Shown here in pieces: positions 9,224 through 14,270 of a stretch of DNA of 64,000 bases. Below the pieces are notes generated by a model, which did no database searches, was not told the DNA's origin, and saw nothing but the letters and a program-made list of their open reading frames with translations. A program made the position numbers and the translations under genes. The first letter of the stretch is position 1, and every line of letters starts with the position of its first letter. This stretch comes from Candidatus Sulfobium sp. GTDB lineage: Bacteria > Nitrospirota > Thermodesulfovibrionia > Thermodesulfovibrionales > UBA6898. The stretch spans positions 1 through 64,000 of the forward strand of contig JARRRI010000006.1 in assembly GCA_037380845.1 (NCBI GenBank). Reading direction: 5' to 3'.

Positions 9224-9967
9224 ATGAAATTCATATGGATGGCAGTTCTGGCTGTTGTGCTTATAGCAGGGCAGGCCTTCGCGGCTGATCAGGTAACTCT
9301 GAAGACGCAGAAGGACAAAGTCAGCTACATAATCGGTCTGAATATCGGAAAGAACATGAAGAGACAGTCGGTCGATATCGACCCGGATCTCCTCCTGAAA
9401 GGGCTGAAGGACGGTCTGAGCGGCAGTAAGCCCGTTCTGAGCGATGACGAGATGCGTGAGGTCATGACTGCCTTCAACCAGGAAATGAAGAAGAAACATG
9501 ACGAAGAGGTAAAGAAGCTCACTGAAAAGAACAAGAAGGAAGGCGAAAAATTCCTTGCCGAGAACAAGAAGAAAGAAGGGGTGGTGACCCTGCCGAGCGG
9601 ATTACAGTATAAAATTATAACCAAGGGGAAGGGGAAGTCTCCGACGATCAACGATGTTGTAACCGTGAATTACCGCGGTACCCTGATCGACGGGACGGAG
9701 TTTGACAGTTCTTACAAGCGTGGCAAGCCCGCGACCTTCCCTGTCAAGGGTGTCATAAAGGGATGGACTGAGGCGCTGCAGTTAATGAAGCCGGGTGCAA
9801 AGTGGATGTTGTACATTCCTCCCGATCTTGCCTATGGCGCGAGAGGGGCGGGCAATGTAATCGGCCCGGACTCGACTCTGATCTTCGAAGTCGAACTGCT
9901 ATCGGTGAAAGAGCCGGGGGAGGGCGGGGCGAGCCCGCACGGCGGCATGCACGGAAAGACAAAGTAA
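9224..9967 (+). CDS. FKBP-type peptidyl-prolyl isomerase (Mip/FkpA-like)
   Basis: Signal peptide (AFA|A), KVSYIIG dimerisation domain, GTEFDSSY, VIKGWTEAL, LAYG. Confidence 0.95.
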   Translation: MKFIWMAVLAVVLIAGQAFAADQVTLKTQKDKVSYIIGLNIGKNMKRQSVDIDPDLLLKGLKDGLSGSKPVLSDDEMREVMTAFNQEMKKKHDEEVKKLTEKNKKEGEKFLAENKKKEGVVTLPSGLQYKIITKGKGKSPTINDVVTVNYRGTLIDGTEFDSSYKRGKPATFPVKGVIKGWTEALQLMKPGAKWMLYIPPDLAYGARGAGNVIGPDSTLIFEVELLSVKEPGEGGASPHGGMHGKTK

Positions 9968-10041
9968 CAAAAATAAGACAGCGCAGGCCCGCGGAGAAGG
10001 CAGCTTGTCCCTCCTCCCCGGAAGAAGCGCCCTCTCAGCAC

Positions 10042-10072
10042 AAAAAAGAACTCCCCCCTTTATGGGGGGAGT
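10042..10072 (-). terminator. Rho-independent terminator between convergent genes
   Basis: Perfect 9-bp stem ACTCCCCCC/GGGGGGAGT with an A-run on the left (U-tail on the minus strand). Confidence 0.6.
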
Positions 10073-10121
10073 GTTGTGAGAAGACCTGCGAAGATATTAA
10101 ATTTCAGAAACGGTCGGGCTG

Positions 10122-10412
10122 CTATGTTCTGAAGTGGGATTCCAGTTCACTGTATGAGTTCGACAGTTCGCTCATCGCTTTTTCCATCCCGGCCTTGTAG
10201 TCTTCCCAGTGGGCGTCTCCGTATTCCCTGATTTCCTGGAGCTTCTGCCTGGCCAGTTCATGGAGGGCCATCAGGTCTTCAACCTGTTCGTAATATTGAG
10301 TTTCGATTCCTGTATTCACGTTCTTTGTCCTGTCTTTTAACTTCCCGATCTCATCAGCCCACTTGGCAAGTTCTGTTTCAATCTTTTGAAAATAGGCTTC
10401 TTTTCCTTCCAT
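10122..10412 (-). CDS. Small coiled-coil protein (Sll1863-like stress protein)
   Basis: KEAYFQKIETELAKW...HWEDYKAGMEKA pattern; GGAGG RBS. Confidence 0.7.
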   Translation of the reverse strand: MEGKEAYFQKIETELAKWADEIGKLKDRTKNVNTGIETQYYEQVEDLMALHELARQKLQEIREYGDAHWEDYKAGMEKAMSELSNSYSELESHFRT

Positions 10413-10630
10413 TCCTTACCTCCTCCCTCTGATAATCTGCTCTGATAAAAGTATAAGCTCTTTTGATTGAAAAAAGAAGAGCGTTCAGCCGTTATTTGCC
10501 TCATTTCCCAATAGTAAGTGCTGAAAAAGTATTTTCGGGTCCTTTTCCGTCATTCCCCCAGGTCGCCTTTGGCGCCGCCAACGGCGGGTAAACTTCGCGG
10601 GAATACGAACCCGGCCCTTTCAGCGACGTG

Positions 10631-11659
10631 CTAGAGCGTCTCCCAGTATTTCGGCGGCATGTCCTTTGCGAGTTTCAGAGCACCGTCGGAACCGGCAAAC
10701 AGCGGATCTTCCACGCAGGTTACCTTGCAGGGACCATATTCCTTGAGCGCATCCTGAAGATAGCCTGCTACACCCTTTATAAGGCTTCCCCCGCCCGCGA
10801 GTACGATATTGTTTTTGATCTTCACCTGGAACTCCGGATCGAACTTGGCGATCATCTCGGTCGTGGTCTCGACCAGTGCCGGAAGGATACTCTCGCAGGC
10901 ACGCTGTATCTCGTTCCTGATGTCGTGCATGACCGGCTTTCCCGAAACCGGGATCTCGACCTGGATCTCCTCGGCCGCCTCACGCACAAAGCTGTATTTC
11001 TCTTTGAACTGGCGCACCATGTTCCTGTTAAATTTGGCGTTGGGATATTTTTCGTTCAGGTAGCTGAAGAGCTGCTCGTCTATATAATCGCCTGCGGTGA
11101 GTATTGTCTTCTGGTCTTCCTCTGCGGGTATCGTGCCGTGCATGATGCAGAAATCAGTCGTGCCTGCACCTATGTCGATCACCATGGAGTTGTTAAGGAG
11201 ATTCATTCCGTAAGCTACCGCAAAGGGTTCGGTCACGACCATGAGGGAATGGACAAATTCCGCCACCGCCTTCCGGATAGCAAGTTTGTTGACTTTCAGA
11301 CTGTCCGAGGGCACTCCCACTACGGCGTATATCCTCTGGTCGTCCGACGGCTCAGCCAGCTCGATAAGATGCCTGATGATCTCCTTTACGGCGTCTTCGC
11401 TCCTGTCGATTCCCTCCTTGATTATGCCGTGTTCCAGCGGCTTGCAGAGATCAAGAGAAAGCCTGTTTTCGAGGGCCTCGGAACCGAAGAGGACGGGTTT
11501 GCCCACGACCTGCTGCGCGATAAAGTCCTTCGGCCAGCCCACAAAGCTCTCTATCCACTCCCGTTTGTCGTTGCTCGCCGAAATGGAACTCCTCGACGTC
11601 CCCAGGTCGATGCCTACAAAGAGGATGTTGTCATCTTTTCGCGTATCCGGCTTTGTCAT
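10631..11659 (-). CDS. mamK: MamK-like actin ATPase
   Basis: GIDLGTS, VGWPKD, VTEPFAVAYG, IDIGAGTTDF, LAGGGS and the MPPKYW end follow recalled MamK rather than MreB; AAGGAG RBS. Confidence 0.85.
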   Translation of the reverse strand: MTKPDTRKDDNILFVGIDLGTSRSSISASNDKREWIESFVGWPKDFIAQQVVGKPVLFGSEALENRLSLDLCKPLEHGIIKEGIDRSEDAVKEIIRHLIELAEPSDDQRIYAVVGVPSDSLKVNKLAIRKAVAEFVHSLMVVTEPFAVAYGMNLLNNSMVIDIGAGTTDFCIMHGTIPAEEDQKTILTAGDYIDEQLFSYLNEKYPNAKFNRNMVRQFKEKYSFVREAAEEIQVEIPVSGKPVMHDIRNEIQRACESILPALVETTTEMIAKFDPEFQVKIKNNIVLAGGGSLIKGVAGYLQDALKEYGPCKVTCVEDPLFAGSDGALKLAKDMPPKYWETL

Positions 11660-12707
11660 AATAATTGTCTCCTTTGTTCAAATAATCGAGTATGCCCGCT
11701 TCGAGGTAATGAGCGATGTTTTCCCTGTGGCGTTCCGTATTAAGCCGTCTTTCTTCAGCCCTGTTGCTGAGACACGACACTTCTGCAAGCACTGCCGGCA
11801 CATCAGAGCCGAGCAGTACGACAAAAGGCGCCCTCTTGACGCCATAGTCATATGCAATCCCGTTTTCCTTCTTTATGTTGATAAAAAGTTCCTTCTGGAT
11901 CGAAGAGGCAAGTTCCCTCGATTCCTGAAGCTTCATCGTTTCGCCGAGTTTTGCGATGATTTCCCTGAAATCGCTCATCCCGTAATTTGACCCTGCATTT
12001 TCCTTTTCCGCGAGTTTGAGGGCTTTGTCGTCGGAGGACGGGCCGAAATAGTAGGTTTCGATGAGGTTTATAGGCTTGGAGGGTACGTAGTTGAGATGTA
12101 TGGAGACGAAAAGGTCCGCCTTCTCCATGCGCGCCATCTTTACCCTCTCGTTGAGCGGCACGGTTATGTCACGATCGCGGGTCATGAGCACCTTATAACG
12201 ACCGTCTTTCTCCAGGAGGCCTTTCAGCCTTTCTGCAATGTCCAGGGTGAGGTCCTTTTCCCTCGTACCGAGCTCGCCCGTTGTCCCACGGTCAACACCG
12301 CCGTGCCCCGCATCTATCATTATCCTCTTGACCCCCAGTCCGAATATGTTGCTGATAGGCATTCCAGGCTCGTGCATTATCGCCTTGAAACCCGAAACAT
12401 CCGGATAATGGAGGAGCGGCGACCTGACTACGGTCGCCGGGATGGGTTGTCGCGCCGTGATTCCCGCCGACACCTGGCTTTCAGAGGTAAATGGGGCCGA
12501 TCTGTACTGAAAATGCAGGAAGATCGCTATTGCCGTAACCATCAAAGACAGGAATAACTTTCTGAGATAAAAGGGTCTGCGCCTGGAGAGGACGCTCCCC
12601 CGCCTCCCCAGTATTTTCAGGTTTTCTTCGTATACGCCCCTGAGAATGGACTGTCTGGTCCTGCTTTCTCTCTTGAGGGAGAAGGGTGATATCATAACGG
12701 TTAACAC
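11631..12707 (-). CDS. Membrane-anchored N-acetylmuramoyl-L-alanine amidase (Amidase_3)
   Basis: DAGHGG, EKDLTL, SIHLN and LAEVS Zn/catalytic residues; N-terminal TM. Start uncertain (12707 or 12695). Confidence 0.9.
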   Translation of the reverse strand: MLTVMISPFSLKRESRTRQSILRGVYEENLKILGRRGSVLSRRRPFYLRKLFLSLMVTAIAIFLHFQYRSAPFTSESQVSAGITARQPIPATVVRSPLLHYPDVSGFKAIMHEPGMPISNIFGLGVKRIMIDAGHGGVDRGTTGELGTREKDLTLDIAERLKGLLEKDGRYKVLMTRDRDITVPLNERVKMARMEKADLFVSIHLNYVPSKPINLIETYYFGPSSDDKALKLAEKENAGSNYGMSDFREIIAKLGETMKLQESRELASSIQKELFINIKKENGIAYDYGVKRAPFVVLLGSDVPAVLAEVSCLSNRAEERRLNTERHRENIAHYLEAGILDYLNKGDNYYDKAGYAKR

Positions 12708-13373
12708 ACTTTAACAATTTAACGGAAAAAATTCAATGCTGGATTTATCCCTAAAAATCATCGGCTTTCCCCTTCCGGCCTTATAAGGAACATTAACCCA
12801 AATGCAGGGATAGGTCAGACAGGGGATAAAGGAGCTGCTCCGCTGCCCAGCCGGTCGCTGGATTCAGTGCGGGAACATTTAATGCCAAGAGAAACCTCAA
12901 TACTGTAGCAGAAATGTCACAGGGTTGATTACAGGAAGGAAGGTTGTGACAGATCATTCCACCTTCTGGACCTACACTGGGCCCCGTAACTGATTTCAGA
13001 AAAGGCCGCGGGCAGCGAATGCCTCCTTTTTTCGACTCCTTCCTGTAATCTTGCTCCGTGATGCACTTTGACAAAATGAGGGTTTGTAGTGCAATGAAAC
13101 GATCCTTTTAATTCAGCTCGGGTCATCCTACTCATGCCACCTGAAATAATTGATGACAGTTTTCATTCTCCGCGGTACATTTTGAGTATGATGAGCTCCA
13201 TTTATTGTGTACCTTCGTTCAGGAAATGCGAGGGCGAAAAAGGTCTAAATGAGGGAAAATGAAATCCATTGCGAGGAGGCTCATAGTCCTTTCCTTTGTT
13301 CGTTTTTTTGCTGGGATCCGATGCACGGTCAGGCGGACATCGATCATGATGCGAAAGAAGGAGGTGCGACAAA

Positions 13374-14270
13374 GTGAGAACATGGCCTGTGAATCTTCGA
13401 GCACCGAATATCGATAAGACTGCTATCAGTCCCTACGACCGTTATTGTGACGGTTATGCCCGTCCAGGTGCGGATGGGAATGGCTATGTATCCGTGGTGA
13501 AGGTCGGTACCGGCACCGTCGTAAAGACTGATGATTTCCTGCTGGATGGTGTACTCGCCTATGACCGGGCCGAGGCCAGCGATGCCTACATTGGACAGAT
13601 CAACATGCAGACCGCCTCATCATTCTGTGGAATTGCCGGCCAGGTTTGGGGTTATGACCTGGCCACAGCGGACGTCATTGCAAGGGGAGAGCAGAAATCG
13701 ATTCTGGAGGTTAAGCAGTATGACTGCTCCGCTCTACCCGTTTATGACGCGCAGCCTTTGATCGACGCGGGCATAGCGCTTTTCGGCACTGAGAAGAACC
13801 GCCGTTTCCCACCGGCTCCGGGTGCCCACGTGCTATGCGCCAATAAGAGCGTGACTGCTCTGCGGCCCAAGGAGGGACCGCTGCAGAAGGGCCAGGCATG
13901 CGGCGTCTGGTGCTCTATCGCTCTTTCCATCGGCAGGGACCGCGATAATGCCGCGGATCTGTTCATCGAGGATGGCGGTTTCTGGACCCAAAACGACAAC
14001 CCGAACGACCTCAAGGCCTTTGTGGAAAAGCACCGTGAGGCGCTGGTATGGTCGGTTGTTGCCTGCGGCAAGTACCAGAACGTGCTCTATGACCGCACTT
14101 ACATCAGCTTTGCTTATACCATCATGAAGCCCGGTGAGGTGGGTACGGCACTCGCCGTCGCGCCATATATAACCCTGGCGCGTGATGCTGTCCCTTCAGG
14201 GGGCTTCAGCAGCCTCAACCGCATGACTCTCTCCGAATGGGCCAGAGAGATGGGGTTTGAGAAAGGCTAA
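13374..14270 (+). CDS. hdcA: Pyruvoyl-dependent histidine decarboxylase proenzyme
   Basis: DKTAISPYDRYCDGY, YDRAE, GQINMQTAS|SFCG self-cleavage site, LFIED; AAGGAGGT RBS before the GTG start. Confidence 0.9.
   Translation: MRTWPVNLRAPNIDKTAISPYDRYCDGYARPGADGNGYVSVVKVGTGTVVKTDDFLLDGVLAYDRAEASDAYIGQINMQTASSFCGIAGQVWGYDLATADVIARGEQKSILEVKQYDCSALPVYDAQPLIDAGIALFGTEKNRRFPPAPGAHVLCANKSVTALRPKEGPLQKGQACGVWCSIALSIGRDRDNAADLFIEDGGFWTQNDNPNDLKAFVEKHREALVWSVVACGKYQNVLYDRTYISFAYTIMKPGEVGTALAVAPYITLARDAVPSGGFSSLNRMTLSEWAREMGFEKG

Follow-up and report, generated by a model that had tools for sequence, protein, structure and literature searches.

This report concerns two overlapping genes of Candidatus Sulfobium sp. 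(phylum Nitrospirota), one for a MamK-family actin-like ATPase and the other for a single-pass membrane N-acetylmuramoyl-L-alanine amidase, which lie in the first 64,000 nucleotides (nt) of contig JARRRI010000006.1 (assembly GCA_037380845.1; this whole stretch is referred to as the window). Both genes are on the minus strand. The actin gene (positions 10631 to 11659) starts with an ATG and encodes a protein of 342 amino acids (aa), which is a member of the clade of amidase-linked actins described below. The amidase gene lies upstream of it (11631 to 12695) and encodes 354 aa from an ATG at 12695, the position from which amidase residues are numbered here. An alternative GTG start on the same strand, at 12707 (open reading frame [ORF] 11631 to 12707), would give 358 aa; the ATG is preferred because the start of most orthologs is an ATG at the position equivalent to residue 5 in the longer ORF. 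The 3' end of the amidase gene and the 5' end of the actin gene share 29 nt (11631 to 11659), an arrangement that fits translational coupling, and the Shine-Dalgarno sequence of the actin gene, AAGGAG (11669 to 11674), falls within the coding sequence of the amidase and precedes the actin ATG by 9 nt. A preliminary description of this DNA had reported the two ORFs, their 29-nt overlap, the 342-aa actin, and a ribosome-binding site and start codon of the actin gene within the 3' end of the amidase gene. Its coordinates were reproduced, except that the amidase start has been moved to 12695. The segments that it considered typical of MamK (VGWPKD, HGTIPAEEDQ, and MPPKYW) are all present in the translation. 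It had also described the ATPase motifs of the actin as intact, and the translation contains the nucleotide-binding motifs GIDLGTS, DIGAGTTD, and LAGGGS.

The actin matched the Pfam family MreB_Mbl (E = 1.5e-27) and scored above the cutoff of the NCBIfam MamK model NF040964 (418.8 bits versus a cutoff of 400; 420.7 bits in a genome-wide profile search). Its scores were below the cutoffs of the MreB models (93.3 versus 293 bits for PRK13927 and 77.8 versus 365.75 bits for TIGR00904) and of BeeR (232.8 versus 530 bits). The nearest solved structure is that of MamK (5JYG/5LJV; E = 5e-93), to which the protein aligns without gaps over residues 10 to 341; the next structure match is 8R2N (161.5 bits), titled "Actin/actin family protein," and MreB structures reached at most 64.5 bits. 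Both the profile scores and the closest structure thus separate the protein from MreB, the grouping that would have spoken against the preliminary assignment to MamK. The first conserved strand begins after about 12 residues, and there is no N-terminal extension of 30 to 50 aa of the BeeR type. Several residues, such as G83, E256, W42, and R129, distinguish the clade from magnetosome MamK. In NCBI records, many of these actins are already named "MamK family actin-like protein."

The host genome (3.18 Mb in 104 contigs; 100% complete) was hit by the MamK profile in two places, namely, at this actin gene and at an mreB gene on contig C32 (79.5 bits). The best scores of the MamM, MamP, and MamA profiles on the genome were 61.5, 36.8, and 107.2 bits, respectively (cutoffs, 350, 300, and 200 bits), and tblastn searches of the genome with the ORFs of six Nitrospirota magnetosome loci retrieved generic relatives only. 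The observation that no other magnetosome gene accompanies the actin gene, previously made for the window, can therefore be extended to the complete genome on the basis of these profile and tblastn searches, and no magnetosome island that might account for the actin gene was found elsewhere in it. The genome also encodes FtsA (366.5 bits), the MreB on C32, and a separate AMIN-Amidase_3 protein of the AmiC type (contig C1), which indicates that the actin-amidase pair is an additional system and not a replacement for any of these.

Recurrence of the gene pair and phylogeny of the actin

A scan of 401 Nitrospirota genomes, including that of the window, yielded actin matches in 38 genomes, which fell into two tiers. 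The first tier comprised 24 genomes (the window's own included) with actins 62 to 100% identical to the query, and the second, with MamKs of the magnetosome type, comprised 14 genomes with 15 loci and identities of 41 to 48%. An amidase ortholog (45 to 61% identical) was found directly upstream and on the same strand at all 23 of the other first-tier loci and at none of the 15 second-tier loci. At all 24 Nitrospirota loci with the pair, the amidase stop overlaps the actin start, by 4 to 32 nt. Three of the 15 second-tier loci were annotated, and all three proved to be magnetosome clusters with MamK and MamM above their cutoffs and with best matches also to MamB, MamP, and MamQ (MamA was found in L038 only). 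None of the 38 genomes has both actin types. A magnetosome-type MamK is present in genus g6, which belongs to the window's own family. In two magnetosome loci, a second, very divergent actin-like gene is located near mamK (L026:8927-10147 and L028:9673-10920); its product, which we take to be Mad28, is 21% identical to the window actin and scores 48 bits on the MamK profile.

When the amidase was used as the query instead, full-length matches (E ≤ 3e-88, from residues 1 to 11) were obtained in exactly the same 24 genomes, and the hits in 42 further genomes were confined to the catalytic domain, with E values of 1e-52 or weaker. Across the 401 genomes, both genes are therefore present in 24, a single gene in 0, and neither gene in 377.

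For a wider scan, which was limited to one genome per species, the query was an alignment of the actin with its nearest 50%-cluster representatives, and 80 loci were retained. The best of these was in a record titled Candidatus Sulfobium sp., with an actin 92% identical to that of the window. Upstream amidase genes were sought with a profile built from the 24 Nitrospirota amidases. An amidase gene was found directly upstream at 40 loci and was missing from 38 (each with at least 1,079 nt of upstream DNA), and the remaining 2 loci were unreadable (L078 and L128). According to the record titles, the 40 pair-holding loci come from Nitrospirota, Desulfobulbaceae, Gammaproteobacteria, Chromatiales, Aminicenantes, Rhodothermales, Thermoanaerobaculia, Holophagales, "Ca. 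Multivorans" (Acidobacteriota), and Binatia. These titles may be imprecise, as two "delta proteobacterium" records nest within the Nitrospirota group. The 38 loci with no amidase gene are mostly from Planctomycetota and also include Omnitrophota and metagenome-assembled genomes (MAGs) such as those of Desulfamplus and Telmatospirillum, whose actins are placed in the tree beside or next to magnetosome MamKs. With start codons set by rule, 32 of the 34 complete pair loci of other species showed a spacing between a 32-nt overlap and a 29-nt gap, and the two outliers have doubtful starts or stops. The pairing, which the preliminary description had seen in one genome, is thus not unique to it and recurs at 23 of 23 other Nitrospirota loci and at 40 of 80 loci of other species. 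The actin is 62 to 92% identical to its orthologs, a level that fits purifying selection. At two loci a gene appears disrupted, with an in-frame stop in the actin gene of L062 (5001 to 6029) and an amidase gene split over two frames in L072 (3971 to 4959), either by decay or by assembly errors.

A maximum-likelihood tree (IQ-TREE quick mode, LG+G4) was built from 119 sequences, comprising an MreB outgroup, the actins of both Nitrospirota tiers (24 and 15), and those of 79 of the 80 loci from the wider scan; the truncated L128 was left out. All 64 amidase-linked actins formed a single clade, with a Shimodaira-Hasegawa-like approximate likelihood ratio test (SH-aLRT) support of 90 (93 with L078 included). 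Among the remaining MamK-family actins with readable upstream DNA, none of 53 has the amidase gene. In a FastTree analysis with 85 unnamed representatives, the window's group was again monophyletic (support, 0.98; two low-coverage rows were dropped). Pairwise identities of the actins and of their amidases were correlated (Spearman coefficient, 0.88; 1,485 nonindependent pairs). In the comparison with MamK and MreB that had been proposed for this actin, the amidase-linked proteins thus constitute a clade of their own within the MamK family. The sister clade contains the magnetosome MamKs of Nitrospirota and Desulfobacterota together with sequences from Planctomycetota and Omnitrophota. Two alphaproteobacterial actins branch first, and the root is placed on a very long MreB branch and is not to be trusted. 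The suggestion of the preliminary description that this actin bears on the origins of MamK gains from the sister relationship to a clade with magnetosome MamKs, but given this root it can be regarded as only suggestive.

Amidase architecture and predicted contact with the actin

The sole Pfam match of the amidase is Amidase_3 (E = 2.4e-43), and the protein has no AMIN domain. A structure model (mean predicted local distance difference test score [pLDDT], 82) consists of a helix at residues 4 to 28, a basic, R/K-rich juxtamembrane stretch (residues 30 to 41), a transmembrane helix (residues 42 to 65; positions 12501 to 12572, minus strand), a disordered linker extending to about residue 100, and a confidently modeled catalytic domain (residues 120 to 341; positions 11673 to 12338, minus strand). 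By the positive-inside rule, the N terminus is likely to be cytoplasmic and the enzyme domain periplasmic. The putative periplasmic domain is of the AmiA/B/C type according to both alignment and a Foldseek search, in which its closest relative was Escherichia coli AmiA (8C2O; E = 3e-19; template modeling score, 0.84; 234 aligned columns, with a chain of 228 residues), followed by AmiC and AmiB. The alignments to AmiC (4BIN), AmiB (3NE8), and AmiA (8C2O) pass through a regulatory insert at approximately residues 218 to 280, and those to the insert-less amidases 5EMI, 4RN7, and 1JWQ end at about residues 218 to 223. Residues H131, E146, H200, and E305, which we take to be the zinc ligands and the catalytic residue, are invariant across 57 amidase orthologs, as are E232 and N233 within the insert. 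In AmiA, AmiB, and AmiC, the insert blocks the active site until an activator of the LytM type acts. The protein may accordingly represent a self-inhibited, activator-dependent amidase of the cell-separation type that lacks AMIN.

The N-terminal helix carries a conserved motif at residues 13 to 29 (positions 12609 to 12659, minus strand), [KR]xx[IL]L[RQ]x[VA][YV][EQ][ED]N[LV], which both its conservation and the cofolding described below mark as the predicted actin-binding peptide. The pattern was found at 35 of the 40 pair loci of other species. Of the five loci with no match, three are truncated at a contig end, L082 has a variant that is visible by eye, and the fifth is L136. Residue N25 is invariant in the 57 amidase sequences. 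Mean column conservation was 0.54 in the motif, compared with 0.27 to 0.31 in the other noncatalytic segments and 0.63 in the catalytic domain. Among 15,054 open segments of the host genome, the pattern occurs once.

An alignment of the actin was cofolded with amidase residues 1 to 42 in three runs, together with three controls, an experiment suggested by the preliminary description. The interaction prediction score from aligned errors (ipSAE) was 0.85 in all three runs and 0.00 for the best of the three controls. The partner pLDDT was at least 69, and at least 93% of the contacts agreed between runs. Calibration of the procedure had put 116 of 157 solved complexes at or above the mark, together with 2 of 215 mismatched pairs; these rates are approximate for the present case, in which our own alignments were used. 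The predicted contact residues of the tail (10, 13, 14, 16 to 18, 20 to 26, 28, and 29) coincide with the conserved motif. Those of the actin are residues 125, 126, 129, 140 to 142, 150, 155, 156, 175 to 177, and 330 to 342, a surface that we read, from the alignment to actin and MamK, as the C-terminal segment together with the groove that separates subdomains IA and IIA. The predicted interface includes I17, L18, V21, Y22, and N25 of the tail and R129, residues 140 to 142, and residues 330 to 338 of the actin. At position 129, R or K is present in 61 of the 64 clade members, and all 53 actins outside the clade have L, I, F, or M. On ParM, crenactin, and actin, the IA/IIA groove is the site occupied by ParR, arcadin-2, and thymosin, respectively, and in the corresponding filaments it also receives the neighboring subunit as the longitudinal contact (PMC5173319).

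Genes around the pair and other MamK-like actins

Clustering of neighboring proteins revealed a gene for a protein of 320 to 480 aa directly downstream of the actin gene at 22 of the 64 loci, all of them in the Nitrospirota part of the tree (among L003 to L024, L060, L072, L075, and L076). The encoded protein consists of a receiver-like domain, a linker, a transmembrane segment, and a SPOR domain. Of 20 such proteins scanned, all had a Pfam SPOR match and 18 had a response-regulator receiver domain (E ≤ 0.001); that of L012 was detected weakly, below the Pfam cutoff. The receiver domain mostly lacks the phosphoacceptor Asp, as judged by eye from the alignment. SPOR domains bind glycan strands that have been stripped of peptides, which is the product of an amidase. 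A SPOR protein is also encoded at one Thermoanaerobaculia locus (L074), and L025 and L108 have genes for a receiver-PilZ protein and a PilZ protein, respectively. Apart from the SPOR gene, the flanks of the pair are not conserved. On contig C2 of the host genome, a gene for an Arf-family-like small GTPase is situated beside a Roadblock/LC7 gene (C2:25577-26671; L150:8078-9172, minus strand), a few kilobases from a SPOR gene considered below; we take this gene pair to be MglA/MglB-like.

In the window, a gene for a small protein of the sll1863 family (10122 to 10412, minus strand; NCBIfam, E = 1e-21) follows the actin gene. No terminator-like site was found between the two genes, and one is present after the sll1863-family gene (10050 to 10072), so that this gene may be cotranscribed with the pair. 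It adjoins the pair at only 1 of the 64 loci and is outside the conserved module. On the other side, a gene for a pyruvoyl-type histidine decarboxylase (13374 to 14270, plus strand; Pfam HDC, E = 1.1e-139; TIGR00541, 433 bits, above the cutoff) runs divergently from the amidase gene, and the 666-nt gap between them has no Rfam match. Rfam searches gave no match anywhere within positions 9900 to 13500, a promoter scan of the locus gave no more sites than a shuffled sequence, and the base composition of the window is not unusual.

The searches also recovered MamK-like actins with other architectures. Many of the 50%-cluster representatives are 500 to 1,232 aa long, and in these a long disordered linker connects a conserved N-terminal segment (around KKDRFREWTKSLGE) to a MamK-like actin domain at the C terminus; examples are P0123, P0127, P0129, P0131, P0132, P0135, P0138, and P0139, which form their own clade. 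Fusions of amidase and actin were sought in 19 long representatives, and Amidase_3 was detected in none of them. In 18 of the 19, the N-terminal part matched no Pfam family. In the remaining one, P0160 (768 aa), FtsZ domains (Tubulin and FtsZ_C) make up the N-terminal part and are fused to a MamK-like actin domain at the C terminus. In the mostly planctomycetotal clade, 14 of 32 clustered loci (L087, L101, L102, L111, L114 to L118, L120, L126, L131, L132, and L138) share a different conserved gene, of unknown function, immediately upstream and on the same strand. Because of this gene, other MamK-family clades may also have dedicated partner genes.

Interpretation of the actin-amidase pair

The two-way co-occurrence of the genes, their overlap, the single actin clade, the conserved tail motif at the predicted interface, and the intact catalytic residues of the enzyme together argue for a dedicated actin-amidase module. 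We consider it probable that this is a two-gene cytoskeleton-hydrolase module in which a filament of a MamK-type actin binds a wall amidase and positions or regulates it. The actin, translationally coupled to the amidase, would polymerize in the cytoplasm. The amidase would start with a short helix in the cytoplasm, cross the membrane once, and continue through a disordered periplasmic linker into a zinc domain of the AmiA/B/C type with a self-inhibiting insert. Its N-terminal helix, as the structure model predicts, would dock into the IA/IIA groove of the actin, and the filament would set where, or whether, the periplasmic amidase strips peptides from peptidoglycan, so that cytoskeletal targeting would stand in for AMIN targeting. 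In many relatives, the downstream receiver-like/SPOR protein may read the denuded glycan strands made by the amidase. As for the process served, an AmiA/B/C-type domain combined with a SPOR partner suggests cell separation or some other form of local wall remodeling, with cell shape as a further candidate. We infer this process, like polymerization, from the components, and positioning, end-anchoring, and regulation of the amidase are not separable by computation. Thus, of the earlier proposal of a nonmagnetosome MamK filament that positions a wall hydrolase, the nonmagnetosome character and the pairing stand and a tail contact is predicted, while the positioning itself remains inferred.

A far-reaching extension of this reading, which we regard as rather unlikely, is a self-reinforcing, trans-envelope patterning machine that is independent of the divisome. 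MamK-type filaments, driven by ATP, would engage the tail through the IA/IIA groove much as ParM engages ParR and, by tracking or pushing at filament ends, would move or line up the self-inhibited amidase. The pseudoreceiver/SPOR protein would read the denuded glycan track, and its cytoplasmic domain would act back on the filament, with FtsA, FtsN, and amidase providing a parallel for such a loop. Given that the sister clade includes magnetosome MamKs, the magnetosome actin would then descend from a wall-remodeling cytoskeleton.

Several points weigh against the interpretation of the pair as a cytoskeleton-hydrolase module. The support is computational throughout, and all 40 named pair-holding records are titled as MAGs, so that no phenotype can be linked to the module. 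The module is patchily distributed (three of the five genomes of genus g2, each 96% complete, have neither gene), which implies that it is dispensable. In the host genome itself, the SPOR homolog (C2:21402-22787) is unlinked to the pair and lies beside a Mur-ligase gene. Magnetosome MamKs share most of the groove residues, and specificity would hence rest on a few positions. Since peptide-in-groove complexes of this kind have already been solved, the success of the cofolding may partly reflect the memory of the model. Finally, because the groove in those solved systems is also the longitudinal filament contact, the tail might bind monomers or filament ends only.

In the most probable of the alternatives, control runs in the opposite direction. 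The amidase tail would nucleate, cap, end-anchor, or sequester the actin in the manner of ParR or arcadin-2, the cargo of the filament would lie elsewhere, and the wall enzyme would serve as an anchor or as a sensor of the state of the wall. The predicted site is in fact the IA/IIA groove used by ParR and arcadin-2, where such binding competes with the longitudinal contact (PMC5173319), and translational coupling suggests that the two proteins are synthesized in nearly equal amounts. However, the amidase residues that serve catalysis and regulation do not vary over several phyla, which speaks for a functional enzyme rather than a mere anchor. The pair also lacks any further conserved cargo gene, its flanks being unconserved except for the SPOR gene, and the SPOR partner points to the amidase product as the output. 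We consider reversed control unlikely.

Still less probable is that the two proteins are coexpressed for one process (e.g., cell separation) and never touch, with the N-terminal helix acting as an in-plane membrane helix, in dimerization, or in binding to some other partner. Adjacency alone is no proof of binding, the helix is amphipathic, and the cofolded complex is a model. Yet mere coexpression fits poorly with the perfect reciprocal co-occurrence (24/0/377) and with an overlap that holds across phyla. An invariant Asn and an acidic pair would be untypical of membrane-binding helices, the cofold score of 0.85 versus 0.00 is accompanied by contacts on conserved residues, and interface position 129 is specific to the clade. 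That the actin was left behind by, or scattered from, a magnetosome system, or is simply an MreB paralog beside an unrelated amidase, seems highly improbable: the protein does exceed the MamK cutoff and its phylum does have magnetotactic lineages with MamKs 41 to 48% identical to it, but MamM, MamP, and MamA were not detected above their cutoffs, the six magnetosome loci retrieved only generic relatives, the orthologs (62 to 92% identical) form a distinct multiphylum clade, none of 38 genomes combines the two actin types, and the MreB scores are far below their cutoffs in a genome with a true MreB on C32.

If the pair is read as a cytoskeleton-hydrolase module, its closest known counterpart is that of the bactofilin BacA and the M23 endopeptidase LmdC of Hyphomonas neptunium and Rhodospirillum rubrum. 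As described in PMC10945521, the polymer gene adjoins the gene of a bitopic hydrolase in many species, and the polymer recruits the hydrolase through a conserved motif of the hydrolase's cytoplasmic tail. The adjacency of polymer and hydrolase genes that characterizes this type of module was found here for 64 of 64 clade members, and a conserved cytoplasmic-tail motif is likewise present, with binding predicted. In contrast to BacA-LmdC, the polymer is a nucleotide-dependent MamK-type actin and not a bactofilin, the hydrolase is an Amidase_3 enzyme that cuts the peptide from the glycan and not an M23 endopeptidase, and the tail motif, a helix and not a beta-hairpin (as that source describes for LmdC), is predicted to insert into an actin groove. 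With components from different families, the pair is an analog, and not a member, of the bactofilin-LmdC type.

Its individual parts also resemble known proteins. The actin shares the sequence family and the nucleotide-binding motifs of MamK (5JYG and 5LJV) but occurs in a genome with no magnetosome genes above the cutoffs and falls in a distinct clade that has an obligatory neighbor of its own. A short partner helix in the hydrophobic IA/IIA groove, as predicted here, is also found in ParM-ParR, crenactin-arcadin-2, and actin-WH2/thymosin (PMC5173319). Unlike in these systems, the partner is the tail of a periplasmic wall enzyme and not a DNA adaptor or a monomer sequesterer. The amidase has the catalytic fold and the regulatory insert of E. 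coli AmiA, AmiB, and AmiC (8C2O, 8C0J/3NE8, and 4BIN) but lacks the AMIN domain present in AmiB and AmiC and is held by an N-terminal transmembrane anchor with a cytoplasmic tail.

Other MamK-like actins of nonmagnetotactic bacteria have been reported. BeeR of Verrucomicrobiota, whose function is unknown, as is the case here, has a disordered N-terminal extension of 30 to 50 aa as its hallmark (PMC11929497), which the window actin lacks. The "big bacteria protein" Bbp is likewise a MamK-like actin of unknown function from outside magnetotactic bacteria, with a clade between MamK and MreB; its operon, as described in PMC10580974, encodes a hypothetical protein and a Kelch-like protein and so differs from the present pair, and that paper nowhere uses the word "amidase." A second MamK in strain AMB-1 and, in a preprint, a mamK homolog beside a flotillin gene in Thiomargarita are further MamK-related cases in print. 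Outside subscription-only papers, which the search did not cover, no literature linking a MamK-family actin with an amidase was found. Although the actin is already annotated, the actin-amidase module looks undescribed, in agreement with the "possibly undescribed" of the preliminary description.

Few bacterial actin families have a known task. If the proposed module is real, one more family would be added to them, with its partner already identified, and the partner would be a peptidoglycan amidase whose targeting domain was exchanged for a cytoskeleton-binding tail. The pair would provide a case for testing how a cytoplasmic filament directs an enzyme across the membrane, in a module that occurs widely among anaerobes of sediments and soils, organisms that have been little studied. 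The existence of a nonmagnetosome sister lineage beside MamK would also open the origin of the magnetosome cytoskeleton to comparison.

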